A DNA stretch of 64,000 nt from Euglena gracilis (Eukaryota). The stretch is from NCBI GenBank assembly GCA_039621445.1, contig CP154954.1:9364634-9428633 (forward strand), given 5' to 3'. The notes under the pieces were generated by a model, which was given only the letters and a program-made list of their open reading frames with translations, had not been told where the DNA came from and ran no database searches. Of this stretch, positions 1,985-64,000 are shown one piece after another; positions within the stretch are counted from its first letter, which is position 1, and each line of letters starts with the position of its first letter. A program made the translations under genes and the position numbers.

Positions 1985-11200
<9,216 letters not shown>

Positions 11201-14026: not shown

Positions 14027-17000
14027 CCAGGGTGTGACGTAGAGCTGAGCTCTTTGGGAGACCACCCTGGCCCGGGATTCATATTTGGGCCCAAAACGGA
14101 GGGCGGGTGGTCGAAAAACGCTCATTTTCGGCTCAAAAACACTTTTTCTGGGTCCGGGAGTCCAAAAAACATCGTTTCGGGTAAAAAAAACTTCGATTTT
14201 TTCGAATTTTTTTGACCCTGTTTTGACCCAAAATCACTGGGTTGGCGGCCAAAAACGGGGGGCTGGCGGGTCGAAAAACGCTCATTTTCGGCTCAAAAAC
14301 ATGTGTTCCGGGTCCGGGAGACCAAAAAACGTCGATTCGGCCAAAAAATAAATTTCGATTTTTTTCGACTTTTTTGACCCGGTTTTGACCCAAAGTCAAT
14401 GGGTTGGCGAACCAAAACGGGGCGCTGGTGGGTCGAAAAACCCCCATTTTCAGCACAAAAACACTTTTTCCGGGTCCGGGAGGCCAAAAAACATGGTTTT
14501 GGAGGAAAAAAAAATTTCGATTTTTTTCGACTTTTTTGGCCGAAAACGGCTAAGTCGGACAGTGGTAAAAGTGTACAAAACGGCCATTTGGACCGAAAAA
14601 CGGCCATATCTCGGGCCAGGCGGGGAGTTGCGGGAAAATCATTATACCAGTAGATAGGGTGCTCCAAGGGCTTCAAATTAGGTCTCCGGGCATTTTTTCA
14701 ACTCCCCACCATTTTGGAGATATTTTGCAAAAAAAATGGTTTTTTGGCCTGTTTTGGGCTCCAAATGGCCCCCCAAGGCGAAACCACAAAACAGCCGTAT
14801 CTCGGCCCAGGCGGGGAGTTGGCCCAAACCGCGCATACCGGTCGATAGGGCGTCCCAAAGTTGTGGAATGACGTCCTCTTTACGTTTCCTCAATTTCGCA
14901 GCGTTTTCGAGATATTTTGAATTTTTCGATTTTTTGACCCAAAAATTGACCCCTTTTGCCGGTCCAACAAAATTTCTTTGGAAAAAAACGGTAGACAACT
15001 TTTTTGCTCCGCACTGGCCACCATCTCCGGACTGGCGGGGAGTTGCGGGTAAAGTGAGGGCTCTGGAGAAACTAGGGATCCTCTCCTAACCTTTTGGCTA
15101 TTAACTTCTCGGGTCCGGAAATCCAATCACATCGATAATCCTGGGGTGCCCGAGCCTACTCGGGGGGGGGGGGGGGGGGGGGGGGCTCCGGCCCCGGTGG
15201 TGAGCTTCGCTCTTACTCTAAAGAGGTAAGAGCTCAGCGACCAGGGTGTGACGTAGAGCTGAGCTCTTTGGGAGACCACCCCGGCCCGGCCCGCGAAAAA
15301 CGCTCATTTTCGGCTCAAAAACAGTTTTTCCGGGTCATGGAGGCCAAAAAACATCGTTTTGGGCAAAAAATTTTCGATTTTTTTCGACTTTTTTTTGGCC
15401 CGGTTTTGACCCAAAGTCAATGGGTTGGCGGCCCAAAACGGGGTGCTGGCGGGTCGAAAAACGCTCATTTTTGGCCCAAAAATACTTTTTTCGGGGCCGG
15501 GAGGCCAAAAAACATGGTTTTGGGCAAAAAATTTTCGAATTTTTTCGACTTTTTGACCCAAAAATGGCCAAGTCCACCGGCCAGGGGGCGCCCCAGTCAG
15601 GGCATGGGGGGGGGTCCGGGTTGGAAAAAATTTTTTTGCCCAAAAACACTTTTTTTGATGTTCTGAAGTGAAAAAAAGTGTTTTGAGCGAAAAAAGTTTT
15701 TTTCAAAATTTTGGGTCCCAACCTGCCACCCGACCCCCCGCCTGGCCTAGCCGCCCTCACGGGCCGCAGGGGTCCCCGAATACCTAAAACTGGCCCAAAA
15801 TCGCACAACCAGACCCAGACCCCGGGAGCCCCAAAAAAACGGTCAACCCCCCCCCCCCTAAACCTAACGATTGACCCCCTGGTTTGGGTCCCAACTCCCC
15901 GTCTAGCCCGAGATACGGCCAATTTACGGTTTCGGGCCCCGAACGGGCCCGAAATGGCCAAAACTGGCAAAACTGGCCCAAAACCCCAAAACGGCCGTAT
16001 CTCGGGCTAGGCGAGGAGTTGGCCCAAACCGCGCATACCGATCGATCGGGCGTCCCAAAGTTGTGGAATGACGTCCTCTTCACTTTTTCTCAACTCCGCA
16101 GCGTTTTCAAGATATTTTGAATTTTTCGATTTTTTGACCCGTAAATGACCCGGCAATTTCCCGGAAAAAAAAACGGTAGACAACTTTTTTGCTCGGGCCA
16201 TATCTCCGGACTGGCGGGGAGTTGTGGGTAACCCAAGCACTCTGGAGAAACTAGGGATCGTCCCCTAACCCATGGACTATACACTTTGGGGGACCGGAAA
16301 TCCAATCACATCGATAATCCTCGGGTGCCCGGACCTACTCAGGGGGGGCGGGGGGCGGGGGGGGGGGGGGGGGGGGGCGAGGAGGCGTTAAGGGGGCGGG
16401 GGGGGGGGGGGGTCTCCACCCCGGTGGTAATAAGTCCTCCAACCCCGGTGGTAAGCTTCGCTCTTACTCTAAGAGATAAGAGCTCAGCGACCAGGGTGTG
16501 ACGTAGAGCTGAGCTCTTTGGGAGACCACCCCGGCCCGGCCCGGCCTGCCAGCGGCCCAGCGGCACGGCCCGGCCCGGCCGGCGCTCGTTTTCAGTTCAA
16601 AAACATTTTTTCCAGGTCCGGGAGGTCCAAAAACATCGTTTTGGACAAAAATTTTCTATTTTTTTCGACTTTTTTTACCCAAAATCACCCAAAATCCATT
16701 GGTTTCGGGCCAAAAACGGGGGTCCGGGGATCAAAAAACGCTCATTTTCGGCTCAAAAATACTTTTTTCGGGTCCGCGAGGTCAAAAAACATGGTTTTGG
16801 GCAAAAATAATTTTTTCGAATTTTTTGGACTTTTTGACCCAAAAATGGTTAAGTCCACTGGCCAGGGGCGGGCCCAGCCAGGAGGGGGCATGGCGGGGGG
16901 GTCCAGGTCGAAAAATTTTTTTTTGCTCAAAAACACTTTTTTTGATGCTCTAAAGTGAAAAAAAGTGTTTTTGAGCAAAAAAAATTTTTTTTCAAAATTT

Positions 17001-18083
17001 TTGGTCCCAACCTGCCGACCCCTCCTCGCCCAGCCGCCCTCACAGCGCCTGCAGGGGTCCCGAATACCCAAAACTGGCCCAAAATCGCACAACCAGGCCC
17101 CGGGAGCCCCAAAAAACGGTCAACCCCCCCCCCTAAACCTAACGATTGACCCCCTGGTTTGGGTCCCAACTCCCCGTGTAGCCCGAGATACGGCCAATTT
17201 ACGGTTTCGGGCCCCGTAAAGGCCCGAAATGGCCAAAACTGGCCAAACTGGCCCAAAACCACAAAACGGCCGTATCTCGGGCTAGGCGAGGAGTTGGCCC
17301 AAACCGCGCATACCGATCGATCGGGCGTCCCAAAGTTGTGGAATGACGTCCTCTTTACGTTTCCTCAACTTCGCAGCGTTTTCGAGATATTTTGAATTTT
17401 TCGATTTTTTGACCCCAAAATGACCCTGTAATTTCCCCGGAAAAAAAAACTGTAGACAACTTTTTTGCTCGGGGCATATCTCCGGACTGGCGGGGAGTTG
17501 CGGGTAACCTGAAGGCTCTGGAGAAACTAGGGATCGTCCCCTAACCTATAGGCTATTCACTTTTGGGGCCCGGAAATCCAATCACATCGATAATCCTCGG
17601 GTGCCCGGACCTACTGAGGGGGGGGCGGGGGGGGGGCGGGGGGGGGCGGGCCACCCCCCCCGGCCCCGGTGGTAAGCTTCGCTCTTACTCTAAAGAGATA
17701 AGAGCTCAGCGACCCCCCCATTAAACACAATAACAAAAAGGGTGTGAAGAGCTGAGCTCTTTGGGGGCCTGGCCCGGCCCGGCGACCGGCCGGCGGCCCG
17801 GCGGCCCAGCCCGGCCGTCGGTCCGGCGGCCTGGCCCGGCCCGGCCGCAGCGTTTTCAAGATATTTTGAGTTTTTCGATTTTTTGACCCCTAAATGACCC
17901 GGCAATTTCCCGGAAAAAAAAACGGTAGACAACTTTTTTGCTCGGGCCATATCTCTGTACTGGCGGGGAGTTGTGGGTAACCCAAGCACTCTGGAGAAAC
18001 TAGGGATCGTCCCCTAACCCATGGACTATACACTTTGGGGGACCGGAAATCCAATCACATCGATAATCCTCGGGTCCCGGACG

Positions 18084-18120
<37 letters not shown>

Positions 18121-21100
18121 CGGGGGGGGGGGGGGGGGGGGGTGGTCACAACGGTGGTAAGCTTCGCTCTTACTCTAAAGAGATAAGAGCTCAGCGACCA
18201 GGGTGTGACGTAGAGCTGAGCTCTTTGGGAGACCACCCCAGCCCGGCCCGCGAAAAACGCTCATTTTCGGCTCAAAAACAGGTTTTCCGGGTCAGGGAGG
18301 CCAAAAAACATCATTTTGGGAAACAGAAATTTTTCGATTTTTTTCGACTTTTTTGACACGGTTTTGACCCAAAGTCAATGGGTTGGCGGCCCAAAACGGG
18401 GCGCTGGCGGTAGAAAAACGCTCATTTTTGGCCCAAAAAAACCTTTGATGGGTCTGGGAGGTCAAAAAACATGATTTTGGGCAAAAAAAAAATTGAATTT
18501 TTTTGACTTTTTGACCCAAAAATGGCTTTACGCAAAAAAAAATTGACTTTTTTCGACTTTTTTGGCCCGGTTTTGACCCAAAGTCAAAGGGTTGGCAGCA
18601 TAAAAACGGGGCGCTGGAGGGTCGAAAAACGCTCATTTTTGGCTCAAAAACACTTTTTTCGGGACCGGGAGGTAAAAAATCATGATTTTGGGTAAGAAAA
18701 AAATTGAATTTTTTTGACTTTTTGACCCAAAAATGGCTAAGTCCACCGGCCAGTGGGGAGGGCCCCAGCCAGGGGGGGGCATGGGGGGGGTCCGGGTCGG
18801 AAAAATTTTTTTTCGCTCAAAAGCAATTTTTTTGATGTTCTGAAGTGAAAAAAAGTGTTTTTGAGCGAAAAAAAAATTTTCAAAATTTTGGGTCCCGACC
18901 TGCCCCCCGTCGCCCTGCCGCCCTCACGCCGCCCGCTGGGGTCCCCGAATACCCAAAACTGGCCCAAAATTGCACAACCAGACCCCGGGAACCCCAAAAA
19001 ACGGTCAACCCCCCCCCCCTAAACCTAATGATTGACCCCCTGGTTTGGGTCCCAACTCCTCGTCTAGCCTGAGATACGGTCAATTTACAGTTTCGGGCCC
19101 CGAAATGGCCAAAACTGGCAAAACTGGCCCAAAACCAGAAAACGGCCGTATCTCGGGCTAGGCGAGGAGTTGTCCCAAACCGCGCATACCGATCGATCGG
19201 GCGTTCCAAGATCGTGAAATAAGGTCGCCATCACTTTTCCTCAACTCCGCAGCGTTTTCGAGATATTTTGAATTTTTGATTTTTTTGTCCCCGAAAAAAC
19301 CTGCAATTTCCCCGAAAAAAAAAACGGTACACAACTTTTTTGCTCGGGCCCGATCTCCGAACTGGCGGGGAATTATGGCTATTGTGTGGGCGCTTGAGAA
19401 ACCTGGGACCGTCTCCTAACCTATAGGCCATTCACTTTGGGGACCCGGAAAATTGGTCACAACGATAATCCTCAGGCCTCCCTGCCTACTCGGGGGGGGG
19501 CGGGGGGGGGGGGGGGGGCGGGGGGTCAGGGGTGGGTTCCAATCCGGGGTGGTAAGCTTCGCTCTTACTCTAAAGAGATAAGAGCTCAGCGACAGGGTGT
19601 GACGTAGAGCTGAGCTCTTTGGGAGACCACCCCGGCCCGGCCGGCGGCCCGGCGGCCCGGCGTCCCAGCGGCCCGGCCGGGCCGGGCCGCCCGGCCGGCG
19701 CTCATTTTCGGTTCAAAAACACATTTTCCAGGTCCGGGAGGTCCAAAAACATCGTTTTGGGCAAAAAAAAATTTGGATTTTTTCGACTTTTTTTTACCCG
19801 AAAATGACCCAAAATCCATTGGTTTTGGGCCAAAAACGGGGGTCCGGGGATCAAAAAACGCTCATTCTCGGCCGAAAAATACATTTTTCGGGTCCAGGAG
19901 GTCAAAAAACATGGTTTTGGGCAAAAAAAAATTTTCGGATTTTTTCGACTGTTTACCACAAAAAGGGTTCAGTCCACCGGCCAGTGTCAGGCCCCAGCCA
20001 GTGCTGTGGGGTCCGGGTCGGAAATTTTTTTTCGCCCAAAAACACTTTTTTTGATGTTCTGAAGTGAAAAAAAATTTTTTTTTGAGCAAAAAAAATTTTT
20101 TCAAAATTGGGTCCCATGCCCGAGACCCCCCCTCGCCCCAGCCGCCTCGGACCCCCGCAGGGGTCCCCGAATACCCAAAACTGGCCCAAAATCGCAAACC
20201 AGACCGGGAAGGCCCCAAAAAAACGGTCAAACCCCCCCCTAAACTAATGATTGACCCCCTGGTTTGGTCCAACTCCCCGTCTAGCCCGAGATACGGCCAA
20301 TTACGGTTTCGGGCCCGAACGGGCCCGAAATGGCCAAAACTGGCCAAACTGGCCCAAAACCCCAAAAAACGGCCGTCTCGGGCTAGGGGGGAGTTGGCCC
20401 AAACCGCGCATACCGATCGATCGGGCGTCCCAAAGTTGTGGAATGAGGTCCTCTTCACTTTTTCAACTCCGCAGCGTTTTCGAGATATTTTGAAATTTTT
20501 CGATTTTTGACCCAAAATGACCCTGCAATTCCCCGGAAAAAAAAACGGTAGACAACTTTTTGCTCGGGCATATCTCCGGACTGGCGAGTTGCGGTAACCG
20601 AAGGGCTCTGGAGAAACTAGGGACCCCCTAACCTATAGGCTATTCACTTTGGGGGCCCGGAAAATCCATCACCGCGCATCGGGGGGGGGCGGGGGGGGGG
20701 GGGGGGCGGGGGGGGGGGGGGGGCGGGGGGGGGGGGGGGGGGCAAGGGGTTGGGGGGGTCTTTTGGTGCTCCGGGAAAGAGAAAGTTTGGTCAAAGCCCG
20801 GCGAGATTTTTTTCGGAGGCAGGCGGGGGGAGGGCGAGACAGGGGGGGGGAAAGAGGGGGGGAAAAAGGGGGAAAAACAGGTTTGGGAGGGGGGGGTTTT
20901 GGGAAAGGGCGGGGGGGGGGGTTTTGGACCCAAACGGGGCGGGTGGGGGGCGAAAAAAAAGATTGGGAGGGGGGGGGGGGGGAGAAGGGGGGGGGACCGG
21001 CCGGGGAAAGGGCCCCAGCGGCGGGGGGGGGGGGGGGGGGGGGGGGCGCTCATTTTCAGCTCAAAAACACTTTTCCGGTCGGAGGTCCAAAAAACATGTT

Positions 21101-24100
21101 TTGGGCAAAAAAAAATTTCGATTTTTCGACTTTTTTTTTATTCGAAAATGACCCAAAATCATGGTTCGGGCCAAAAACGGGGGTCCGGGTCAAAAACGCT
21201 CATTTCGGCCGAAAATTTTTTCGGGTCCAGGAGGTCAAAAAACATGGTTTTGGGCAAAAATTTTTTTCGAATTTTTTCGACTTTTTGACCCAAAAATGGT
21301 TAAGTCCACCGGCCAGGGGCAGGCCCCAGCCAGTGCGGGGGGGTCCGGGTCGGAAATTTTTTTTCGCCCAAAAACACTTTTTTTGATGTTCTGAAGTGAA
21401 AAAAAGTTTTTTTTTGATCAAAGAATTTTTTGTTAAAATTTTGGACCTGCCACCCGACCGCCCCCCACTCGCCCAGCCGCCCTCGAACCCCCCGCAGGGG
21501 TCCCCGAATACCCAAAACTGGCCCAAAATCGCACAACCAGACCCCGGGAACCCCAAAAAACGGTCAAACCCCCCCCCCTAAACCTAATGATTGACCCCCT
21601 GGTTTGGGTCCCAACTCCCCGTCCAGCCCGAGATACGGCCAAATTACGGTTTCGGGCCCCGAACGGGCCCGAAATGGCCAAAACTGGCCAAACTGGCCCA
21701 AAACCCCAAAACGGGCGTATCTCGGGCTAGGCGGGGAGTTGGCCCAAACCGCGCATACCGATCGATCGGGCGTCCCAAAGTTGTGGAAGGACGTCCTCTT
21801 TCCTTTTTTGCAACTCCGCAGCGTTTTCGAGATATTTTGAATTTTTCGATTTTTTGACCCCAAATGACCCTGCAATTTCCCCGGAAAAAAAAACGGAAGA
21901 CAACTTTTTTGCTCGGGGCAGATCTCCGGACTGGCGGGGAGTTGCCGGTAACCTAAAGGCTCTGGAGAAACTAGGGATCGTCCCCTAACCTATAGGCTAT
22001 TATTCACTTTGGGGGCACGGAAATCCAATCACATCGATAATCCTCGGGTGCCCGGACCTACCCAGGGGGGGGGGCGGGGGGTCAGGGGGGGTCCCAAACC
22101 GGGGTGGTAAGCTTCGCTCTTACTCTAAAGAGATAAGAGCTCAGCGACCAGGGTGTGACGTAGGGCTGAGCTCTTTGGGAGACCACCCCGGCCCGGCCGG
22201 CGGCCCGGCGGCCCGGCGTCCCAGCGGCCCGGCCGGGCCGGGCCGCCCGGCCGGCGCTCATTTTCGGTTCAAAAACACATTTTCCAGGTCCGGGAGGTCC
22301 AAAAACATCGTTTTGGGCAAAAAAAAATTTCGATTTTTCGACTTTTTTTTACTCGAAAATGACCCAAAATCTATTGGTTTCGGGCCAAAAACGGGGGTCC
22401 AGGGATCAAAAAACGCTCATTTTCGGCCGAAAAATATTTTCTTCGGGTCCAGGAGGTCAAAAAACATGGTTTTGGGCAAAAAAAATTTTTTCGAATTTTT
22501 TCGACTTTTTGACCCAAAAATGGTTAAGTCCACCGGCCAGGGGCAGGCCCCAGCCAGTGCGGGGGGGTCCGGGTCGGAAATTTTTTTTCGCCCAAAAACA
22601 CTTTTTTTGATGTTCTGAAGTGAAAAAAAGTTTTTTTTTGAGCAAAAAAATTTTTTTCAAAATGTTGGGTCCCAACCTGCCACCCGACCGACCCCCCCTC
22701 GCCCAGCCGCCCTCGGACCCCCCGCAGGGGTCCCCGAATACCCAAAACTGGCCCAATATCGCACAACCAGACCGGGAAAACCCCAAAAAACGGTCAAACC
22801 CCCCCCTAAATCTCATGATTGACCCCCTGGTTTGGGTCCCAACTCCCCGTGTAGCCCGATATACGGCCAAATTACGGTTTCGGGCCCCGAACAGGCCCGA
22901 AATGGCCAAAACTGGCAAAACTGGCCCAAAACCCCAAAACGGCTGTATCTCGGGCTAGGCGGGGAGTTGGCCCAAACCGCGCATACCGATCGATCGGGCG
23001 TCCCAAAGTTGTGGAAGGACGTCCTCTTTCCTTTTTTGCAACTCCGCAGCGTTTTCGAGATATTTTGAATTTTTCGTTTTTTTGACCCAAATGACCCTGC
23101 AATTTCCCCGGAAAAAAAAACGGTAGACAACTTTTTTTGCTCTGGGCATATCTCCGGACTGGCGGGGAGTTGCCGGTAACCTAAAGGCTCTGGAGAAACT
23201 AGGGATCGTCCCCTAACTTATAGGCTATTCACTTTGGGGGCACGGAAATCCAATCACATCGATAATCCTCGGGTGCCCGGACCTACCCAGGGGGGGGGGC
23301 GGGGGGTCAGGGGGGGTCCCAAACCGGGGTGGTAAGCTTCGCTCTTACTCTAAAGAGATAAGAGCTCAGCGACCAGGGTGTGACGTAGGGCTGAGCTCTT
23401 TGGGAGACCACGCTCATTTTCGGCTCAAAAATACTTTTTTCGGGTCCGGGCGGCCAAAAAATATCGTTTCGGGCAACAAAAAGTTGGTTTTGACCCAAAG
23501 TCATGGGTCGGCGGCCCAAAAACGGGGGCTGGGGGTCGAAAAACGTAATTTTTCGGCCCCAAAACTAGTTTTCTCCCCGGGTCCGGGAGGCCAAAAAACA
23601 TGGTTTTGGGTGGAAAAAATTTTTCGGTTTTTTTCGACTTTTTTTGGCCGAAAACGGCGAAGTCGAACAGTGGGAAAAGTGTACAAAATGGGCCAAATTG
23701 GCCGAAAAACGGCCGTATATCGCGCTAGGCGGGCAAGGGCTTCAAATTATGTCTCCGAACATTTTTTTCAACTCCCCACCTTTTTGGAGATATTTTGCAA
23801 AAACTGGTTTTTTGGCCTGTTTCGGGCTCCAAACGGCAGAGTCCCTCCAAGGCGAAACCACAAAACGGCCATATCTCGGCCCAGGCGGGGAGTTGGCCCA
23901 AACCGCGCATACCGGTGGGTAGGGCGTCCCAAAGTTGTGGAATGAGGTACTCTTTACTTTTTCTCAACTCCCCAGCGTTTTCGATATATTTTAATTTTCG
24001 TTTTTTTTTTTGACCCCAAAAATGACCATTTTTGCCGGTCCAACAAAATTTCTTTGGAAAAAACGGTAGACAACTTTTTTGCTCGGGCCATAACTCCAGA

Positions 24101-27100
24101 CCGGCGGGGAGTTGCGGGCAAAGTGAGGGCTCTGGAGAAACTAGGGATCGTCCCCTAACCTATAGGCTATTAACTTCTCGGGTCCAGAAGTCCAATCACA
24201 TCGATAATCCTCGGGTGCCCGACCTACTCAGGGGGGGGGGGTGTGGGGTAGGGGGGGGTCTCCGGCCCCGGTGGTAAGCTTCGCTCTTACTCTACAGAGA
24301 TAAGAGCTCAGCGACCAGGGTGTAACGTAGAGCTGAGCTCTTTGGCTTTTTGCATGGCTTTGGGCAAAAAAATTTTTTTCGACTTTTTGACCCAAAAATG
24401 CATGGGGGGGGGGGTCCGGGTCGGAAATTTTTTTTTCGCCCAAAAACACTTTTTTTGATGTTCTAAAGTGAAAAAAAAGTGTTTTTGAACAAAAAAATTT
24501 TTTCAAAATTAAACTGGCCCGAAAATCGCACAACCAGGCCCCGGGAACCCAAAAAACGGTCAATAAACCTAATGATTGACCCCCTGGTTTGGGTCCCAAC
24601 TCCTCGTCAAGCCCGAGATACGGCCAATTTACGGTTTCGGGCCCAAACATGCCCGAAATGGCCAAAACTGGCCCAAAACCCCAAAACGGCCGTATCTCGT
24701 GCTCAGCGAGGAGTTGGCCCAAACCGCGCATACCGATCGATAGGGCGTCCAAAAGTTGTGGAATGAGGTCCTCTTTACTTTTCCTCAACTCCACAGCGTT
24801 TTCGAGATATTTTGAATTTTTCGATTTTTTGACCCCCAGCCCAGCAGCCCTCGAACCCGTGCAGGGGTCCCCGAATACCCAAAAATGGCCCAAAATCGCA
24901 CAACCAGACCCCAGGAACCCCAAAAAACGGTCAAAGCCCCCCCCTAAACCTAATGATTGACCCCCTGGTTTGGGTCCCAACTCCTCGTCTAGCCCGAGAT
25001 ACGGCCAATTTACGGTTTCGGGCCCCGAACGGGCCCGAAATGGCCAAAACTGGCAAAACTTGCCCAAACCCCCGAAACGGCCGTATCTCGGGCTAGGCGA
25101 GGAGTTGGCCCAAACCGAGCATACCGATCGATCGGGCGTCCCAAAGTTGTGGAATGACGTCCTCTTTACTTTTTCTCAACTCCCCGGCGTTTTTGAGATA
25201 TTTTGAATTTTTGAATTTTTTGACCCCAAAATGGCCCTGCAATTTCCCCGAAAAAAAAAACGGTAGACAACTTTTTTGCTCGGGCCATATCTCCGGACTG
25301 GCTGGGAGTTACGGGTAACCGAAGTGCTCTGGAGAAACTAGGGAACCTCTCCTAACCTATAGGCTATTCACTTTGGGGGCGCGGAAATCCAATCACATCG
25401 ATAATCCTCAGGTGCCCCGACCTACCCAGGGGGGGGGGGGGGGGGGGGGCGGGGGGGTCCGACCCCCCCGTCGCCGGGGTGGTAAGTTTCGCTCTTACTC
25501 TAAAGAGATAAGAGCTCAGCGACCAGGGTGTGACGTAGAGCTGAGCTCTTTGGGAGACCACCCCAGCCCGGCACGGCCCGGCGGCCCGGCCCGGCGGCAC
25601 GGCCCGGAGGCCCGTCCGGCGGCCCGGCCCGGCCGGCGGCCCGGCGGCCCGGCCCGGCTGGCGGGTCGAAAAACGCTCATTTTCGGCTCAAAAACAGGTT
25701 TTACTGGTCCTGGAGGCCAAAAAACATTGTTCTGGGCAAAAAAAATTTTTTCGATCTTTTCGACTTTTTTTGGCCCGCTTTTGACCCAAAGTCAATGGGT
25801 TGGTGGCCCAAAACGGGGCACTGGATGGTCGAAAAACGCTCATTTTTGGCTCGAAAACACTTTTTTCGGGTCCGGGAGGTCAAAAATCATGGTTTTGGGC
25901 AAAAAAAAAATTTTCGACTTTTTTTCGATTTTTTGACCCAAAAATGGCCACCGGCACAGGGGGGCGGGCCCCAGCCAGGGGGGGCAGGGGGGGTCCGGGT
26001 CGGAAAATTTTTTTTCGCCCAAAAACACTTTTTTTGATGTTCTGAAGTGAAAAAAAGTGTTTTTGAGCGAAAAATTTTTTTTCAAAATTTGGGTCCCGAC
26101 CTGCCACCCGACCCCCCTCGCCCAGCCGCCCTGACGGCGCCTGCAGGGGTCCCCGAATACCCAAAACTGGCCCAAAATCGCGCAACCAGACCCCGGGAAC
26201 CCCAAAAAACGGTCAAAACCCCCCCCCTAAACCTCATGATTGACCCCCTGGTTTGGGTCCCAACTCCCCGTGTAGCCCGATATACGGCCAATTTACGGTT
26301 TCGGGCCCCGAACGGGCCCGAAACGGCCAAAACTGGCCAAACTGGCCCAAAACCCCAAAACGGCCGTATCTCGGGCTAGGCGAGGAGTTGGCCCAAACCG
26401 CGCATACCGATCGATCGGGCGTCCCAAAGTTGTGGAAGGACGTCCTCTTTGCTTTTTTCAACTCCGCAGTGTTTTCGAGATGTTTTGAAATTTTCGATTT
26501 TTTGACCCCAAATTCACCCTGCAATTTCCCCGAATTGCTCGGGCCATATCTCCGGACTGGCGATAGTTGCGGGTCACCGAAGGCTCTGGAGGCTAGGGAT
26601 CGTCCCCTACCCTATAGGCCCTTCACTTTGGGGGGGCCCCGGAAATCCAGGTCACCAGTCGATATCCCGTGGTTTCCGGACCTCCCAACCAGGGTGGGGG
26701 CGGGGGGGGGGGGCGGGGGGGGCGGGGGGGGGGGGGGGCGGGAGGGGGCCGGGGGGGGGCGTGGGGGGTGGGCGGGTTTTGTTAGATGTTCTGCAGTGAA
26801 AAAAAGGGTGTGTCTTGAGGGAAAAAAAAATTTTAACAATTCGCTTACGGCGCCAAATTTTTTTCAAAGAAGGTTTTTTTCGACTTTTGTGACCCCGGTT
26901 TTTGACCCAAAGTCAACGGGCTTCTTCGGCTTCGATGTCGGCTGGCGGGTCGAAGAGATAATCTCATTTTTGCATCCAAAACACTTTTTTCGGGTCCGGA
27001 ACCATAGTGTGACGTATAAAATTTTTTTTTCGATTTTCTTGAGCTTCTTTTTGGCCGCGAGACCACCCCGCCCTGCTCCGTCGGGTCGAAAAACGCTCAT

Positions 27101-30100
27101 TTTTCGGCGCAAAACAGTTTTTTCCGGGTCCAGGGAGGCCAAAAACATCCTTTCGGCGGGCCTAAATTTTTTTTTCGATTTTTTTTTGACTTTTTTGACC
27201 CGGTTTTGATCACAACGTCAACGTTGGTCGGCGGCCCAAAACGGTGGCCGCTGGGCGGTCGAAAAACGCTCGTTTTCCGCTCAAAAACAGTTTTTCTGGG
27301 GCCGGGAGGCCAAAATACATCGTTTGAGGCAAAAAAACAATTTTCGATTTTTTTCACCTTTTTTCGTCCGGTTTTGACCCAAAGTCAATGGGTTGGCGGC
27401 CCAAAACGGGGCGCTGGCGGGTCGAAAAACGCTCATTTTTGGCTCGAAAACACTTTTTTCGGGTGCGGGAGGTCAGAAATCATGGTTTTGGGCAAAAAAT
27501 TTCGAATTTTTTCGACTTTTTGACCCAAAAATGGCCACCGGCCACCGGCCAGGGGGGCGGGCCCCAGACAGGGGGGGGGGGCAGGGGGGGGGACGGGGGG
27601 GAAAATTTTTTTTCGCTCAAAAACACTTTTTTTGATGTTCCGAAGTGAAAAAAAGGGGTTTTGGGGGAAAAAGTTTTTTTCAAAAATTGCCGGGGTACGA
27701 CCTGCCACTCGACGCCCCCTCGCCCAGCCGCCCTCACGCCGCCCGGTGGGGTCCCCGAACACCCAAAACTGGCCCAAAATCGCACAACCAGACCCCGGGA
27801 ACCCCCAAAAAATGGTCAAAACCCCCCCCTAAACCAATGATTGACCCCCTGGTTTGGGTCCCAACTCCCCGTCTAGCCCGAGATACGGCCAATTTACGGT
27901 TTCGGGCCCCGAAATGGCCAGAAATGGCCAAACTGGCCCAAAACCCCCAAAACGGCCATATCTCGGGCTAGGCGAGGAGTTGTCCCAAACCGCGCATACC
28001 CATCGATAGGGCGTTCCAAGGTCGTCAAATGAGGTCGACATCACTTTTCCTCAACTCCGCAGCGTTTTCGAGATATTTTGAATTTTTCGATTTTTTGACC
28101 CCAGCCCGGCCGGCCTCGAACCCCCGCAGGGGTCCCCGAATACCCAAAACTGGCCCAAAATCGGACAACCAGACCCCGGGAACCCCAAAAAACGGTCAAA
28201 CCCCCCCCCTAAACCTAATGATTGACCCCCTGGTTTGGGTTCCAGCTCCCCGTCTAGCCCGAGATATGGGCAAATTACGGTTTCAGGCCCCGAACTGGCC
28301 CGAAATGGCCAAAACTGCCGATCGATAGGGCGTCCAAAAGTTGTGGAGGGATGTCCTCTTTACTTTCCCTCAACTCCACAGCGTTTTCGAGATATTTTGA
28401 ATTTTTCGATTTTTTGACCCCAGCCCGGCCGGCCTCGAACCTCCGCAGGGGTCCCCGAATACCCCAAAACTGGCCCAAAATCGCACAACCAGACCCCGGG
28501 AACCCCCCAAAAACGGTCAAACCCCCCCCCCCTAAACCTAATGATTGACCCCCTGGTTTGGGTTCCAACTCCCCGTCTAGCCCGAGATACGGCCAAATTA
28601 CGGTTTCGGGCCCCGAACGGGCCCGAAATGGCCAAAACTGGCCAAACTGGCCCAAAACCCCAAAACGGCCGTATCTCGGCCCAGGCGAGGAGTTGGCCCA
28701 AACCGCGCATACCGATCGATCGGGCGTCCCAAAGTTGTGGAATGACGCCCTCATTACTTTTCCTCAACTCCACAGCGTTTTCGCTTTTTTTATGTTCTGA
28801 AGTGAGAAAAACTGTTTTTGAGCGACAAAAAAAATTTCAAAATTTTGGTACCCGACCTGCCTCCCGACCCCCCGTCGCCCAACCGCCCTGACGGCGCCCG
28901 GTGGGGTCCCCGAATACCCAAAACTGGCCCAAAATCGCACAACCAGACCCCGGGAACCCCAAAAAACGGTCAAAACCCCCCCCCTAAACCTAATGTTTGA
29001 CCCCTGGTTTGGGTCCCAACTCCTCGTCTAGCCCGGGATACGGCCAATTTACGGTTTCGGGCCCAAACAGGCCCGAAATGCCCAAAACTGGCCCAAAACC
29101 CCAAAACGGCCATATCTCGGCTCGCGAGGGTTGGCCCAAACCGCGCATACCGATCGATAGGGCGTCCAAAAGTTGTGGAGGGATGTCCTCTTTACTTTTC
29201 CTCAACTCCACAGCGTTTTCGAGATATTTTGAATTTTTCGATTTTTTGACCCCAGCCCGGCCGGCCTCGAACCTCCGCAGGGGTCCCCGAATACCCAAAA
29301 ATGGCCCAAAATCGCACAACCAGACCCCGGGAACCCCAAAAAACGGTCAAAACCCCCCCCTAAACCTAATGTTTGACCCCTGGTTTGGGTCCCAACTCCC
29401 CGTCTAGCCCGAGATACGGCCAAATTACGGTTTCGGGCCCCGAACGGGCCCGAAATGGCCAAAACTGGCCAAACTGGCCCAAAACCCCAAAACGGCCATA
29501 TCTCGTGCTCAGCGAGGAGTTGGCCCAAACCGCGCATACCGATCGATAGGGCGTCCAAAAGTTGTGGAATGACGTCCTCATTACTTTTCCTCAACTCCGC
29601 AGCGTTTTCGCTTTTTTTGATGTTCTGAAGTGAGAAAAACTGTTTTTGAGCGACAAAAAAATTTTCAAAATTTTGGTACCCGACCTGCCAATACCCAAAA
29701 CTGGCCCAAAATCGCACAACCAGACCCCGGGAACCCCAAAAAAACGGTCAAAACCCCCCCCTAAACCTAATGTTTGACCCCTGGTTTGGGTCCCAACTCC
29801 TCGTCTAGCCCGGGATACGGCCAATTTACGGTTTCGGGCCCAAACAGGCCCGAAATGCCCAAAACTGGCCCAAAACCCCAAAACGGCCATATCTCGTGCT
29901 CAGCGAGGAGTTGGCCCAAACCGCGCATACCGATCGATAGGGCGTCCAAAAGTTGTGGAGGGATGTCCTCTTTACTTTCCCTCAACTCCACAGCGTTTTC
30001 GAGATATTTTGAATTTTTCGATTTTTTGACCCCAGCCCGGCCGGCCTCGAACCTCCGCAGGGGTCCCCGAATACCCAAAAATGGCCCAAAATCGCACAAC

Positions 30101-33100
30101 CAGACCCCGGGAACCCCCAAAAACGGTCAAAAACCCCCCTAAACCTAATGATTGACCCCCTGGTTTGGGTTCCAACTCCCCGTCTAGCCCGAGATACGGC
30201 CAAATTACGGTTTCGGGCCCCGAACGGGCCCGAAATGGCCAAAACTGGCCAAACTGGCCCAAAACCCCAAAACGGCCGTATCTCGGCCCAGGCGAGGAGT
30301 TGGCCCAAACTGCGCATACCGATCGATCGGGCGTCCCAAAGTTGTGGAATGACGTCCTCATTACTTTTCCTCAACTCCGCAGCGTTTTCGCTTTTTTTGA
30401 TGTTCTGAAGTGAGAAAAACTGTTTTTGAGCGACAAAAAAATTTTCAAAATTTTGGTACCCGACCTGCCTCCCGACCCCCCGTCGCCCAACCGCCCTGAC
30501 GGCGCCCGGTGGGGTCCCCGAATACCCAAAACTGGCCCAAAATCGCACAACCAGACCCCGGGAACCCCAAAAAACGGTCAAAACCCCCCCCTAAACCTAA
30601 TGTTTGACCCCTGGTTTGGGTCCCAACTCCTCGTCTAGCCCGGGATACGGCCAATTTACGGTTTCGGGCCCAAACAGGCCCGAAATGCCCAAAACTGGCC
30701 CAAAACCCCAAAACGGCCATATCTCGTGCTCAGCGAGGAGTTGGCCCAAACCGCGCATACCGATCGATAGGGCGTCCAAAAGTTGTGGAGGGATGTCCTC
30801 TTTACTTTCCCTCAACTCCACAGCGTTTTCGAGATATTTTGAATTTTTCGATTTTTTGACCCCAGCCCGGCCGGCCTCGAACCTCCGCAGGGGTCCCCGA
30901 ATACCCAAAAATGGCCCAAAATCGCACAACCAGACCCCGGGAACCCCCAAAAACGGTCAAAACCCCCCCCTAAACCTAATGATTGACCCCCTGGTTTGGG
31001 TTCCAACTCCCCGTCTAGCCCGAGATACGGCCAAATTACGGTTTCGGGCCCCGAACGGGCCCGAAATGGCCAAAACTGGCCAAACTGGCCCAAAACCCCA
31101 AAACGGCCGTATCTCGGCCCAGGCGAGGAGTTGGCCCAAACCGCGCATACCGATCGATCGGGCGTCCCAAAGTTGTGGAATGACGTCCTCATTACTTTTC
31201 CTCAACTCCGCAGCGTTTTCGCTTTTTTGATGTTCTGAAGTGAGAAAAACTGTTTTTGAGCGACAAAAAAATTTTCAAAATTTTGGTACCCGACCTGCCT
31301 CCCGACCCCCCGTCGCCCAACCGCCCTGACGGCGCCCGGTGGGGTCCCCGAATACCCAAAACTGGCCCAAAATCGCACAACCAGACCCCGGGAACCCCAA
31401 AAAACGGTCAAACCCCCCCCCCTAAACCTAATGTTTGACCCCTGGTTTGGGTCCCAACTCCTCGTCTAGCCCGGGATACGGCCAATTTACGGTTTCGGGC
31501 CCAAACAGGCCCGAAATGCCCAAAACTGGCCCAAAACCCCAAAACGGCCATATCTCGTGCTCAGCGAGGAGTTGGCCCAAACCGCGCATACCGATCGATA
31601 GGGCGTCCAAAAGTTGTGGAGGGATGTCCTCTTTACTTTCCCTCAACTCCACAGCGTTTTCGAGATATTTTGAATTTTTCGATTTTTTGACCCCAGCCCG
31701 GCCGGCCTCGAACCTCCGCAGGGGTCCCCGAATACCCAAAAATGGCCCAAAATCGCACAACCAGACCCCGGGAACCCCCCAAAAACGGTCAAAACCCCCC
31801 CCTAAACCTAATGATTGACCCCCTGGTTTGGGTTCCAACTCCCCGTCTAGCCCGAGATACGGCCAAATTACAGTTTCGGGCCCCGAACTGCCCCGAAATG
31901 GCCAAAACTGGCCAAACTGGCCCAAAACCCCAAAACGGCCGTATCTCGGGCTAGGCGAGGAGTCGGCCCAAATCGCGCATACCGATCGATAGGGCGTCCA
32001 AAAGTTGTGGAATGAGGTCCTCTTTGCTTTTCCTCAACTTCACAGCGTTTTCGAGATATTTTGAATTTTTCGATTTTTTGACCCCAGCCCGGCCGCCCTC
32101 GAACCCCCGCCGGGGTCCCCGAATACCCAAAACTGGCCCAAAATCGCACAACCAGACCCCGGGAACCCCAAAAAATGGTCAAAACCCTCCCTAAACCTAA
32201 TGATTGACCCCCTGGTTTGGGTCCCAACTCCCCGTCTAGCCCGAGATACGGCCAATTTACGGTTTCGGGCCCCGAGCGGGCCCGAAATGGCCAAAACTGG
32301 CCAAACTGGCCCAAAACCCCAAAACGGCCGTATCTTGGGCTAGGCGAGGAGTTGGCCCAAACCGCGCATACCGATCGATAGGGCGTCCAAAAGTTGTGGA
32401 ATGAGGTCCTCTTTACTTTTCCTCAACTCCGCGGGGCTTTCGAGATATTTCGAATTTTTCAATTTTTTGACCCCAAAATGACCCTGCAATTTCCCCGGAA
32501 AGAAAAACGGTAGACAACTTTTTTGCTCGGGCCATATCTCCGGACTGGCGGGGAGTTACGGGTAACCGAAGGGCTCTGGAGAAACTAGGGATCGTCCCCT
32601 AACCTATAGGCTATTCACTTTGGGGGCCCGGAAATCCAATCACATCGATAATCCTCGGGTGCCCCGACCTTCCCAGGGGGGGCGGGGGGCGGGGGGGTCC
32701 GACCTCCCCGTCGCCGGGGTGGTAAGCTTCGCTCTTACTCTAAAGAGATAAGAGCTCAGCGACCAGGGTGTGACGTAGAGCTGAGCTCTTTGGGAGACCA
32801 CCCCGGCCCGGCCCGCCAAAAACGCTCATTTTCGGCTCAAAAACAGTTTTTCCGGGTCAGGGAGGCCAAAAAACATCATTTTGGGAAACAGAAAATTTTC
32901 GATTTTTTTCGACTTTTTTGACCCGGTTTTGACCCAAAGTCAATGGGTTGGCGGCCCAAAACGGGGCGCTGGAGGGTCGAAAAACGCTCATTTTTGGCTC
33001 AAAAACGGGTTTTCCGGGTCCGAGAGGTCAAAAATCATGATTTTGTTCAAAAAAAATTTTTTGGAATTTTTTTGACTTTTTGACCCAAAAATGGCTAAGT

Positions 33101-33933
33101 CTACCGGCCAGTGGGGCGGGCCCCAGCCAAGGGGGGCATGGGGCGGGGGGGGGGGTCCGGGTCGGAAATTTTTTTTCCGCTCAAAAACACTTTTTTTGAT
33201 GTTCTGAAGTCAAAACAAGTGTTTTTGAGCGAAAAAAAATTTTTCAAATTTTTGGGTCCCGACCTGCCACCCGACCCCCCCTCGCCCAGCCGCCCTCACG
33301 GCGCCCGGTGGGTTCCCCGAATGCCCAAAACTGGCCCAAAATCGCACAACCAGACCCCGGGAACCCCAAAAAATGGTCAAAACCCCCCCTAAACCTAATG
33401 ATTGACCCCCTGGTTTGGGTCCCAACTCCTCGTCTAGCCCGAGATACGGCCAATTTACGGTTTCGGGCCCCGAAATGGCCAGAACTGGCAAAACTGCGGG
33501 TTTTGCCAGTTCTTCTTCGGGTTTTGCCGTGTTCTGGTTTGCCAACCAGAACACGGGCCAGGTATGTCGGCAGCCAAAACGGCGAGATAGAATAGAGGGC
33601 CTTAGGGGGTACATTTCGTCAGTGGGACACTTCCGGAAATAATGTAAGTTTTCTCGAGATATTTTCGAAAAATCGATTTTTGGCGAATTTTTGGACTCGC
33701 GGGTGAATAACTCGGGCCTGGCAGGGAGTTTGGGGTCAAATGGAGGTGATTCTGAAACTAGAAATCCTGTCGCTCGCGACTGAAAAAAAATTCCGGGAAC
33801 CAGGCCGTGATCATGGTGCTAATCCCCCGGTTCCCAAGGTGGGCCTGGGGAGGGGGCGGGGGGAGGGTCCGACCCCCCCTTTTCCCCAGGGGTGAGGTTC
33901 GCTCTTACCCATAAAGGGATAAGAGCTCAGCAA
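14027..33933 (-). mobile_element. Head-to-tail array of a ~1.2 kb non-autonomous Helitron2/Helentron-like element (left arm)
   Basis: Junction motif AGAGCTCAGCGA|CCAGGGTGTGACGTAGAGCTGAGCTCT (minor variants) at 15240, 16490, 18197, 19592, 22147, 23372, 24314, 25522, 32762; the array begins exactly at CCAG (14027). On the minus strand units run 5'-TC...CTGG-3'. The tandem repeat is certain; the Helitron assignment is inference. Confidence 0.7.
27700..32430. repeat. Internal satellite of ~390-440 bp subunits with ~830 bp higher-order period
   Basis: Near-identical blocks recur at 29774, 30604, 31435 and at 30165, 30996; subunits derive from the middle of the 1.2 kb unit and lack its termini. 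Confidence 0.9.
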
Positions 33934-34832
33934 CTCCCCCCAACTCCCTGCCAGATCCAAGTTATTCAGCCGACAAGAGGTCCAAACTGGGTAGGATTAC
34001 CCCCCCCCAGTTTCCTCTGAGACCCTCTGCCCCCCTCGTGCGCCGTTTCAGCCGCCGACACGCCTGGCCCATGTTATGCTGTTTTTTTTTTGCAACCCAA
34101 ACGGCCATTTGTGGAGCCTTTTTGGGTCAAACAAAAATAGAATCTTTATAGATATTATTTAAAATAGAATATTGTTCAAAACATCTTAGAAAAGGAGCAA
34201 AATCAAGGGAAATTTCCGGCACCCTGAATCAAAGCCCTCCCTTGGGAATTTATAAAGCCGGACCAGGTTTCGTGTTGTGCTGAGCTCTTTTCCTGCCTGA
34301 TGGCGCTAGGCAGCTCAGCCCAGCCTGGCATGGGCGACAGCTGGAGATAGATATGGGGTGATGAAACGGACCTAAAGTGGCCATAGGTCGGGCTAGCTTC
34401 GGGGAAATCAATTTACCTTTAGACAAGCCATTCCAAGGCCAGTGCAAGAGGGATTCGGGAACCAGGACACTCTCTTCACATCGACCTCTGGTCTTGATTG
34501 CACATCCGACAAACTTTGAACATTATCCAAAAAACTCCCGAGGAACGTTTTTGAAAGCAAGAAACCGACACCATGCCCCCCCCAACGAGCTGTTCCCGTC
34601 CCCGACCCTGTTACGGCCTAATGGGAACAGTATGGGGGGACCTGGGTCCCCCCCCCCCGAGCCATTCCCATACCCGAACCTTGAACAGCCCAAAGGGGGC
34701 CATTTTGGCAACTGTTATTTGGATGTTGGCAAAAATGGTCAATTTTAGGCACATTTGCCCAAAAAAAATTGAAAACGTCCCAAAAACGTCGACTTCTGAG
34801 CACTTTTCTGGGACGTTCTTTATGGGGAGTGG

Positions 34833-37396
34833 TCGCTGAGCTCTTATCTCTTTAGAGTAAGAGCGAAGCTGACCACCCCGGTTTGGGGCCCCCCCTGACC
34901 CCCCCGCCCCCCCCCCCTGAGTAGGCAGGGAGGCCTGAGGATTATCATTGTGACCAAATTTCCGGGTCCCCAAAATGAATATCCTACAGGTTAGGAGACG
35001 GTCCCAGGTTGCTCAAGCACCCCCGCAATAGCCCCAACTCCCCGCCAGTTCAGAGATCGGGCGCGAGCAAAAAAGTTGCGTACCGTTTTTTTTTTCGGGG
35101 AAATTGCAGGTTTTTGGGGGGTCCAAAAATCGAAAAATTCAAAATATCTCGAAAACGCCGCGGAGTTGAGGAAAAGTGATGCAGACCTTATTTGACGATG
35201 TTGGAACGCCCGATCGATCGGTATGCGCGGTTTGGGCCGACTCCTCGCCTAGCCCGAGATACGGCCGTTTTGTGGTTTTGGGCCAGTTGGTCCAGTTTTG
35301 GCTATTTCGGGCCCATTCGGGGCCCGAAAACGTAATTTGCCCATATCTCGGGCTACACGAGGAGTTGGAACCCAAACCAGGGGGTCAATCATTAGGTTAA
35401 CCGTTTTTTTTTTTTTTTGGTTCCCGGGGTCTGGTTGTGCGATTTTGGGCCAGTTTTGGGTATTCGGGGACCCCGGCGGGGGTTCGAGGGCGGCCGGGCT
35501 GGGGTCCAAAAATCGAAAAATTCAAAATATCTCGAAAACGCTGCGGAGTTGAGGAAAAGTGATGACGACCTCATTTGACGACCTTGGAACGCCCTATCGA
35601 TCGGTATGCGCGGTTTGGGACAACTCCTCGCCTAGCCCGAGATAGGGCCGTTTTGGGGGTTTTGGGCCAGTTTTGCCAGTTCTGGCCATTTCGGGGCCCA
35701 AAACCGTAAATTGGCCGTATCTCGGGCTAGACGAGGAGTTGGGACCCAGACCAGGGGGTCAATCATTAGATTTAGGGGGGGGTTTTGACCGTTTTTGGGG
35801 GTTCCCGGGGTCTGGTTGTGCGATTTTGGCCCAGTTTTGGGTACTCGGGGACCCCACCGGGCGCCGTGAGGGCGGCTGGGCGAGGGGGGGTCGGGTGGCA
35901 GGTCGGGACCCAAAAATTTGAAAAAAATTTTTCGCTCAAAAACACTTGTTTTGACTTCAGAACATCAAAAAAAGTGTTTTTGAGCGGAAAAAAATTTTCC
36001 GACCCGGACCCCCCCCCCCCGCCCCATGGCTGGGGCCCGCCCCACTGGCCGGTGGACTGAGCCATTTTTGGGTCAAAAAGTCAAAAAAATTCAAAAAAGC
36101 CGTTTTTGCGGACGGGGGCGGACTCGGCGGCTCTGGGGGGACGGGTTCCGGAGTTTGTAGCTTTCTGATTGGTGTTTTTTTTCTTTTTTTTTTTTTTTTT
36201 TGGGTCAAACCGGGCGGCCAAAAAAGTCGAAAAAAATCGAAAAAATTTTTTTTTTGCCCCAAAAAAAAATAAGGGGGGGGGTGGAAAGCCAACTCGTACG
36301 GACAATCAGAGTTATAGAACACAGCTAGGAAGACGAAAGCTCCATCTCAGATCAAAATTCATAATATAAAATTATAAAATCAAAGGTATTTTTGGGTCGA
36401 AAATGAGCGTTTTTCTACCGCCAGCGCCCCGTTTTGGGCCGCCAACCCATTGACTTTGGGTCGAAACCGGGTCAAAAAAGTCGAAAAAAATCGAAAATCT
36501 TCTGTTTCCCAAAATGATGTTTTTTGGCCTCCCTGACCCGGAAAAACTGTTTTTGAGCCGAAAATGAGCGTTTTTCGCGGGCCGGGCCGGGGTGGTCTCC
36601 CAAAGAGCTCAGCTCTACGTCACACCCTGGTCGCTGAGCTCTTATCTCTTTAGAGTAAGAGCGAAGCTTACCACCCCGGTTTGGGACCCCCCCCCCCCCC
36701 CCGCCCCCCCCCCCGCCCCCCCCCCCCCCCTTGAGTAGGCAGGGAGGCCTGAGGATTATCGTTGTGACCAAATTTCCGGGTCCCCAAAATGAATATCCTA
36801 CAGGACGGTCCCAGGTTGCTCAAGCACCCCCGCAATAGCCCCAACTCCCCGCCAGTTCGGAGATCGGGCGCGAGCAAAAAAGTTGCGTACCGTTTTTTTT
36901 TCCGGGGAAATTGCAGGTTTTTGGGGGGTCAAAAAATCGAAAAATTCAAAATATCTCGAAAATGCTGCAGAGTTGAGGAAAAGTGATGGCGACTTTATTT
37001 GACGACGTTGGAACGCCCGATCGATCGGTATGCGCGGTTTGGGCCGACTCCTCGCCTAGCCCGAGATACGGCCATTTTGTGGTTTTGGGCCAGTTTGGCC
37101 AGTTTTGGCCATTTTGGGCCCATTCGGGGCCCGAAACCGTAATTTGCCCATATCTCGGGCTAGACGAGGAGTTGGAACCCAAACCAGGGGGTCAATCATT
37201 AGGTTTAGGGGGGGGGGTTGACCGTTTTTTGGGGTTCCCGGGGTCTGGTTGTGCGATTTTGGGCCAGTTTTGGGTATTCGGGGACCCCGGCGGGGGTTCG
37301 AGGGCGGCCGGGCTGGGGTCCAAAAATCGAAAAATTCAAAATATCTCGAAAACGCTGCGGAGTTGAGGAAAAGTGATGACGACCTCATTTGACGAC
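34833..37396 (+). mobile_element. Inverted right arm of the same Helitron-like array
   Basis: Starts exactly at TCGCTGAGCTCTTATC (34833); CTGG|TC junction at 36630/36631; second unit truncated near 37396. Confidence 0.72.
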
Positions 37397-37529
37397 ATTG
37401 AGGTGGGGGTTCCGGCCAGGGCCAACCAGGGCAGACCAGGGTCGACCAGGGCCAACGAGGGCCGACTTTGCCATTTGTCAGCCGATGCCCACAGGAAATG
37501 GTGGTCAAGGTCTTCCCTGGCTTGCGTTG

Positions 37530-38167: not shown

Positions 38168-60210
<22,043 letters not shown>

Positions 60211-63551: not shown

Positions 63552-63557
63552 CATGTG

Positions 63558-64000
<443 letters not shown>

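Follow-up and report, generated by a model that had tools for sequence, protein, structure and literature searches.

The 64,000-nucleotide stretch of Euglena gracilis contig CP154954.1 analysed here (the window) contains a cluster of related repeat units. In a BLAST comparison of one unit with the window, the family occupies only positions 14027 to ~37400, about 23 kb. Thirteen units were delimited, with lengths between 485 and 7240 bp; the minus strand carries U1 to U10 and U3b, the plus strand P1 and P2. The units form two arms that face each other with their 5′-ends across a spacer (Table 1). An initial annotation of the minus-strand arm, made from the sequence, described it as a 20 kb satellite that is a head-to-tail concatemer of one element with Helitron termini. 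'Satellite' fits poorly because of the range of unit lengths. A classical satellite consists of uniform, homogenised monomers with an arbitrary phase at the array ends, whereas at least three subfamilies are present here and three of the four array ends fall at a single phase.

Where two units meet, read on the minus strand, the 3′-end of one (AGAGCTCAGC-TCTACGTCACACC-CTGG) is followed by the 5′-start of the next (TC-GCTGAGCTCT), giving the layout ...AGAGCTCAGC-TCTACGTCACACC-CTGG/TC-GCTGAGCTCT with the 10-nt repeat GCTGAGCTCT and its complement on both sides of every junction. The 27-nt motif that spans this point, AGAGCTCAGCTCTACGTCACACCCTGG, is found in 10 minus-strand copies (14027-32789) and one plus-strand copy, each with at most one mismatch, and 100 shuffled sequences gave no match, an expectation of 0 against the 11 observed. 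The bond CTGG/TC is exact at 9 of the 11 junctions that bear termini. At the junction at 19592, between the 3′-end of U5 and U4, one G is missing, and at another a 27-nt filler lies between a damaged 3′ terminus and the TC of U3.

The shared repeat is a subterminal inverted repeat of 10 bp (11 including the flanking T/A), set in by 2 nt at the 5′-end and by 17 nt at the 3′-end. GCTGAGCTCT is found 2 nt from the end in all 13 of the 5′-ends, and TC in 12 of them, the exception being U10 with TT. CTGG closes 10 of the 12 3′-ends (U5 is the one short of a G, and U3b is without TGG), and the 3′ copy of the repeat is subterminal and asymmetric in all 12, one of which is damaged. Each unit is thus equipped with a 45-nt 5′ domain composed of TC, the 10-bp repeat and a hairpin, and a 31-41-nt 3′ domain composed of the inverted copy of the repeat within a 13-nt palindrome (AGAGCT-C-AGCTCT), the 17-nt tail and CTGG.

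The 5′ hairpin uses half of the subterminal repeat, and DNA folding of three copies gave z values of −2.2, −2.6 and −2.9. Across 13 copies, changes are confined to the loop, the bulge or the weak outer stem, and 97.8% of cells are paired. No hairpin was predicted by DNA folding in the 14-17-nt 3′ tail.

Three of the four array ends lie within 2 nt of the junction position, for which the chance is ~3e-7 if a unit of ~1.2 kb is assumed, and the units therefore have real, sharp ends with a phase that is not arbitrary. The outer end of the minus-strand arm reads CTGG/TTTACG at 14027/14026, the plus-strand arm opens exactly at TC (34833), and at the inner 5′-end of the minus-strand arm the repeat stops at 33931 and is followed by TT (33932-33933) instead of TC. 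Two 3′-ends have no unit next to them and continue into TTTACG and TTTTTG, both T-rich; the three 5′-ends that are likewise free have GGGGAGTGG, GGGGGGG and GGGGGGAG upstream of them, all G-rich. The minus-strand arm is not flanked by direct repeats of more than 2 nt.

The termini proposed by the initial annotation, TC ... CTGG with an inverted repeat at 2 and 17 nt, are confirmed by the 11 junctions, the predicted fold agrees with its overlap of the 5′ repeat and a hairpin, and the two boundaries that it placed at CTGG followed by TTT and at the TC of the opposite arm are both exact. Its description of units abutting without a spacer holds apart from the junction short of a G and the one with filler. 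The T-run targets that it suggested are seen on the 3′ side, but not on the 5′ side, either in the window or among the read-set contigs described below.

Table 1. Coordinates of features in the window (position 1 is its first letter).
Feature	Position	Strand	Basis or remark
Two exon-like NAD_binding_10 pieces, profile positions 1-27 (E 1.6e-3) and 76-109 (E 2.4e-4)	1985-2100; 6334-6744	plus	both under the curated cut-off
Minus-strand arm, 11 termini-delimited units (U1-U10 and U3b), head to tail, 485-7240 bp each	14027..33933	minus	
Junction motif copies	14027, 15241, 16491, 18198, 19592, 22148, 23373, 24315, 25523, 32763	minus	motif search
Outer 3′ terminus, conserved block GGTGGTCTCCCAAAGAGCTCAGCTCTACGTCACACCCTGG, then low-copy flank TTTACG	14027..14067	minus	
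162-bp sub-repeats adjoining the 3′ terminal domain, 2.8 copies (other units 1.6-2.5)	14091..14538	minus	top summed read-set depth
Example of an exact junction, U2 3′-end/U1 5′-end: 3′ subterminal repeat AGAGCTCAGC, 17-nt tail ending in CTGG, TC, 5′ subterminal repeat GCTGAGCTCT	15229..15267	minus	
U2 5′ terminal domain: TC, subterminal repeat, hairpin (7-bp stem, bulge, 3-bp stem and 3-bp outer stem)	16455..16490	minus	
27-nt filler, T-rich on the upstream 3′-end side, G-run on the downstream 5′-end side	17713..17739	minus	between the damaged 3′ terminus and the 5′ TC of U3
Damaged 3′ terminus adjoining the filler (U3b, without TGG)	17740-17760	minus	
C-rich low-complexity tract (~350 nt) in place of termini between the two U5 bodies	20700..21045	minus	
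Higher-order repeat of ~830 bp in U9 (two ~389-440-bp sub-repeats), ~4.5 copies, 98-99.4% identity	28318..32053	minus	
Diverged U10 5′ terminus, TT for TC, hairpin pairing kept via a T-A to C-G double change	33884..33933	minus	
Spacer of 900 bp between two facing 5′-ends, weak and patchy likeness to the family	33934..34832		BLAST
Plus-strand arm: P1 34833-36630, one exact junction 36630/36631, P2 cut mid-unit	34833..37400	plus	
Junction motif copy	36604	plus	motif search
Inverted pairs of the 36-48-nt motif	35237-35284/35321-35368; 35621-35668/35694-35741; 37044-37091/37128-37175; 33700-33735/33937-33972		

Between the terminal domains, the canonical unit is composed, after the 45-nt 5′ domain, of a G/C-rich stretch with a poly-C tract, a ~389-bp module, a palindromic A/T-rich module, 162-bp sub-repeats in 1.6-2.8 copies and often (GGCCC)n, and it closes with the 3′ domain. 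The interior evolves freely and combines G/C homopolymers with tandem sub-repeats of 389 and 162 bp and a (GGCCC)n microsatellite. The ~830-bp higher-order repeat in U9 is a recent amplification in situ; nowhere else does the array behave as a young satellite would. Just inside the 5′ domains of units are homopolymer tracts of G or C, 44-85 nt long, at 16342-16412, 18087-18142, 20681-20742, 26692-26776 and 36687-36730, and in U5, where the inter-body termini are missing, the tract has grown to ~350 nt. A further motif of 36-48 nt (CAACTCC..GCC..CCCGAGATA.GGCC) recurs inside the ~389-bp module in either orientation, its copies forming closely spaced inverted pairs, and the pair at 33700-33735/33937-33972 brackets the diverged 5′-end of U10.

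Termini and interiors differ sharply in conservation. Mean pairwise identity is 98.2% over the 5′ terminal 45 nt (12 of the 13 units; U10 was too diverged to include) and 98.6% over the 3′ terminal 41 nt (11 of 12, omitting the damaged U3b), with non-CpG divergence of 2.0% and 1.4%, respectively. For five internal modules, compared over 8-11 units each, mean identity is 86-93% and non-CpG divergence 5.8-13.6%, which is 5-10 times the terminal divergence. Of the non-CpG columns, 6 of 80 vary in the termini and 211 of 735 in the interior (p=1.3e-5), and all six terminal CpG columns are invariant, whereas internal ones diverge by 14-19%. The sequence just inside the termini occurs in several unrelated forms that differ by subfamily. 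Neutral decay in place cannot spare the termini, and therefore either the units had diverged before they came together, with their termini selected for mobility, or conversion is confined to the junctions. The termini behave like sites required in cis.

Identities in one internal segment, module B, define the relationships among units. U4 matches its neighbours U3b and U5 at only 76-79% identity, against 92% for P1 on the opposite arm. U2 and U3b share 97% identity although U3 lies between them, U1 and U7 share 91% despite their distance, and the adjacent U5 and U6 are 98% identical. This matrix indicates that the array is a mosaic of three or more subfamilies in which a few units were duplicated locally, and not a concatemer of one element; the subfamilies are interleaved rather than ordered by position in the array.

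The abundance of the family was assessed by aligning Logan contigs of four public runs to positions 13700-16640 (2.9 kb) at 85% likeness. Runs X1, X2 and X15 are from the same organism as the window (organism A), and X17 is from a second organism (B). The numbers of contigs that aligned were 234,082 (X1), 232,158 (X2), 66,233 (X15) and 19,272 (X17). For X1, X2 and X15, summed depth was 149, 111 and 29 in the flank bin 13898-13996 and ~1.1e6, 1.0e6 and 3.2e5 in the junction bins, ~10^4 times the low-copy flank bin, and it rose to ~1.1e7, 1.2e7 and 3.6e6 over the 162-bp module; neither summed depths nor their ratios can be read as copy numbers, and short contigs that overlap push depth up. Plainly, the family is a major repeat of organism A and is also present in organism B. 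The A/T-rich left flank at 13700-13897 reached a summed depth of 9,000-34,000 in X1, against 149 in the next bin, and is therefore itself moderately repeated.

Loose ends of contigs were listed for 6 places per run, out of more than 6,600. Among those listed for X1, 165 contigs follow the 5′ domain to 15242 and then continue into diverse sequence (agreement 0.44) that is C-rich on the plus strand, that is, G-rich upstream of TC on the element strand. The filler junction and, for other places in the genome, these loose ends, again behind G-runs, indicate that the 5′ half of the junction can exist apart from the 3′ half. No place with a pile-up of contig ends was among those listed for 13700-16640 in the four runs. 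One X17 contig crosses the junction 15240/15241 with 24 letters on one side, and one X15 contig crosses the outer array boundary with 25 letters inside; both fall under the 31-letter bridging rule and were not counted.

From the structure of the units, we interpret the cluster, with moderate confidence, as 13 non-autonomous mobile elements of one very abundant family with ends derived from Helitron2/Helentron elements and resembling those of HINEs. A RepHel transposase (HUH-Y2 plus helicase) supplied from elsewhere would nick at G^TC and displace one strand; termination at CTGG^ would allow the ends to be joined as a CTGG/TC junction intermediate, and the element would then insert at a G^T site without target duplication. 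Resident ends could serve as landing sites because the G^T bond reappears wherever a 3′-end has T after it and at every existing junction. New copies of different subfamilies would thus land exactly at resident ends and build a mixed head-to-tail array, which would account for exact junctions between unrelated subfamily members. Near-identical neighbours such as U5 and U6 may be due to terminator bypass or unequal exchange, and the internal sub-repeats would expand by ordinary satellite-type amplification, as in U9. More tentatively, the head-to-tail junction itself may be the preferred integration site, the transposase cutting a resident CTGG^TC, or a 3′-end with T after it, and splicing in other members of the family. 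The array would then grow like a set of cassettes, as a eukaryotic counterpart of an integron assembled by an HUH enzyme, and the runs of G and T in the flanks would mark a G^T target, in contrast to the A^T or T^T used by described Helitrons. Bolder still, a RepHel partner may be lacking altogether and the termini may belong to an undescribed class.

Comparison with known systems was made with published descriptions. Canonical Helitrons (Helitron1), with 5′-TC and CTRR-3′ ends and no terminal inverted repeats, share the TC ... CTGG signature, but the asymmetric inverted repeat sets the present family apart from them, as does a 5′ flanking base that is G and not the A of an A^T target. In Helitron2, as characterised in the relevant passages of Bao and Jurka 2013 (PMC3627910), asymmetric inverted repeats of 8-15 bp are found, the 5′ one 0-2 nt from the end and within a 5′ hairpin, the element starts with T, the 3′ repeat is set back 20-30 nt from the end, with a 3′ hairpin downstream of it, and compensatory changes keep the hairpin; Chlamydomonas members such as Helitron-1N1_CRe insert between TTTT and T/C. 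The present units share with these the asymmetric repeat, its position 2 nt from the 5′-end within a hairpin, the initial T and a change that keeps the hairpin.

HINE/DINE-1 elements, in the portions of Thomas et al. 2014 that deal with them (PMC4067079), carry subterminal repeats of 12-15 bp, palindromic in mite and mosquito (Culex), whose distance from the 5′-end is 2-4 nt and from the 3′-end 38-60 nt. They also have a 3′ palindrome, insert into T-rich targets without modification, and contain microsatellites or tandem repeats that fill up to half of the element. The oyster element Cg_HINE is described with the same layout and satellite-like central repeats (Vojvoda Zeljko et al. 2020, PMC7492417). 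The family resembles these in its palindromic subterminal repeats (11-15 bp there), 5′ hairpin, central tandem repeats and microsatellite, lack of coding sequence and very high copy number, and likewise in internal repeats that can grow into satellite-like arrays. Whole elements chained at exact termini, as seen here, are not the main pattern in those accounts of HINEs (PMC4067079, PMC7492417). An autonomous partner of such elements would carry a RepHel gene, plus an endonuclease in Helentrons, between the same termini. By description, the family agrees with Helitron2 and HINE elements in its 5′ and internal-repeat features, loosely in its 3′ features, and in a T-rich target on one side only, and the Helitron2-like end architecture named in the initial annotation is upheld to that extent.

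Chains of Helitrons are themselves known, and the primary papers on tandem Helitron arrays are reportedly those of Pritham and Feschotte from 2007 and Xiong et al. from 2016. According to excerpts of later work, such arrays occur in bat, silkworm and plant centromeres (PMC4067079, PMC5148889, PMC5876387), and those in bat and silkworm are put down to terminator bypass (PMC4067079). The head-to-tail Helitron ends are common to those arrays and the present one, and are ascribed there to rolling-circle read-through or to insertion beside a resident copy. The units here, in apparent contrast, are non-autonomous, of several subfamilies and with internal satellites of their own. Purified Helraiser transposase forms end-to-end (RTS-LTS) junctions and cleaves them precisely on one strand, in an account that cites head-to-tail junctions and tandem arrays as known (PMC5876387). 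Joined ends are described for Fusarium Helitron2 and three tandem copies for Metarhizium (PMC5148889). Heli2Xen, a Helitron2 of Xenopus laevis with 166-bp minisatellites (PMC12001565), is similar by description in being non-autonomous and largely filled by a minisatellite of ~160 bp, but the Xenopus arrays are, in that account, repeats inside single elements and not chains of whole elements.

Several observations weigh against derivation from Helitron2-type elements. The window contains 144 stop-to-stop open reading frames (ORFs) of at least 130 aa, of which 88 were scanned against Pfam (all of those outside the array and the long microsatellites, and some inside the array), and Helitron_like_N, PIF1 and other Helitron or helicase families were absent from these 88, in keeping with the statement of the initial annotation that the window has no RepHel ORF. 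The 3′ offset of 17 nt falls short of both the 20-30 nt given for Helitron2 and the 38-60 nt of mite HINEs. The 3′ hairpin is weak (5-bp stem, z −0.7) and overlaps the 3′ repeat rather than lying downstream of it, and no separate 3′ palindrome is found past the subterminal repeat such as is described for HINEs. The 5′ flanks, in the window and in the X1 loose ends, are G-rich and not T-rich as described for Helentrons and Helitron2. Covariation in the 5′ hairpin amounts to one compensatory pair, and because it is a single event and 65 of 500 shuffles score as high, it lends the hairpin little weight. U5 and U9 each consist of two bodies joined body to body without termini. Internal modules reach 5-10 times the summed depth of the termini, and may therefore also exist as independent repeats. 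Finally, the plus-strand arm breaks off mid-unit near 37400, at about unit position 435 of P2, without a terminus; other arrays that begin and end at random unit positions were named in the initial annotation as a refutation of its reading, and this end is of that kind, whereas the other three lie at the junction.

The initial annotation explained the array as rolling-circle amplification of a non-autonomous element, and a single concatemer of one Helitron, made by read-through and later decayed in place, would account for the nine exact junctions and for the 98% identity of U5 and U6, and it would follow the published terminator-bypass account of tandem arrays, as given in passages of PMC4067079 and PMC5148889. 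It is nevertheless improbable, since neutral decay would strike termini and interiors alike, yet these stand at 98% and 86-93%; the interiors are 5-10 times more diverged than the termini. The proposal is likewise at odds with the position of U4, closer to P1 than to its own neighbours, with the grouping of U1 with U7 and U2 with U3b across intervening units, and with the unrelated forms of the sequence adjoining the termini. Also quite unlikely is an ordinary complex satellite that contains a conserved box, either protein-binding or palindromic and fragile, grows by unequal exchange and owes its array ends to breaks at the box. Satellite-type processes do act here, as the U9 higher-order repeat at 98-99.4% shows, body-to-body joints without termini exist, and internal modules outnumber termini in the read sets. 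However, unequal exchange brings no unit diverged to 76-79% into the middle of an array, many contigs carry the 5′ half of the junction without the 3′ half, and the ends at 14027 and 34833 fall on the same bond as the junction, with a third within 2 nt (33931-33933), for which enzymatic cleavage is a better explanation than breakage.

Doubtful, too, is a mobile element of another class, in which the junction is the recombination site of a circular intermediate, either Crypton-like (tyrosine or serine recombinase) or Replitron-like (an HUH Rep without helicase), and circles enter resident junctions to form cassette-like arrays. Site-specific integration at a resident site would give mixed units with exact junctions, and the two repeat copies across a junction can pair, the 11-bp arms and 19-nt spacer folding as an 11-bp stem (z −2.6). 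The quasi-palindromic repeat doubles as a near-direct terminal repeat (GCTGAGCTCT versus GCTCAGCTCT), and short direct terminal repeats mark Replitrons, which are described as copy-and-paste HUH elements in Craig 2023 (PMC10288648). Replitrons, mostly without target duplication in that description, also resemble the family in a terminal hairpin or palindrome and in abundant non-autonomous forms, and GG, which closes the 3′ terminus, precedes the 5′ TC in two of three non-tandem ends. That overlap can be accounted for by the G-run flanks alone, though, and no recombinase or Rep ORF is among the 88 scanned. Strongly asymmetric ends with a 5′ hairpin follow the Helitron2 descriptions point by point, whereas Replitron ends are described, in the part of the account that covers them, with neither such inverted repeats nor a 5′ hairpin, making Replitrons the weaker match.

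The spacer was considered as a member of the family and rejected, as BLAST gave weak patches only. By eye, its stretch 34262-34320 (plus strand) resembles the 3′ terminus in reverse complement (CCAGG...GCTGAGCTCTTT), with a GCTGAGC...GCTCAGC hairpin after it. This stretch, absent from the BLAST output, may be a decayed relative. An origin of the facing arms by inverted duplication of flanks was also rejected, since the flanks do not align and have only the heptamer GGGGAGT in common. Beyond the plus-strand arm, a 10-bp minisatellite (CCAGGGCCAA, 4.8 copies, 37416-37463) begins 16 nt past the point where P2 is cut off. Very long (TG)n/(TGTG)n microsatellites, one of ~2 kb, are located at 53325-55291, 47101-47328, 51530-51867 and 63554-64000, with an extreme GC skew of 0.4-0.7.

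Among the 88 ORFs scanned, Pfam families matched only two exon-like stretches of an NAD(P)H-binding protein to the left of the array, which suggest a multi-exon gene with kb-sized introns, and none of the 10 longest ORFs outside the array matched a Pfam family. No Rfam match was found in the window at gathering thresholds. The exact pattern of the 5′ domain was found at no locus in metagenome, viral or prokaryote genome contigs, and that of the 3′ domain at none in metagenome contigs, the sole set scanned for it.

Annotation of Helitron-type elements is difficult, and little is understood of how they integrate. Both the kind of element proposed here and the chaining of such elements are already known; the distinctive features of the locus are the joining of different family members at exact ends and the G-rich 5′ flanks. 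With exact ends, several subfamilies at the same bond and termini much more conserved than the interiors, it provides a natural record suggesting that resident ends act as landing sites. An idea from the literature is that tandem transposon dimers can seed satellites by unequal exchange. Two routes from transposon to satellite are seen in this one locus, the chaining of whole elements and the amplification of internal repeats, in a family that appears to be a major component of this genome.

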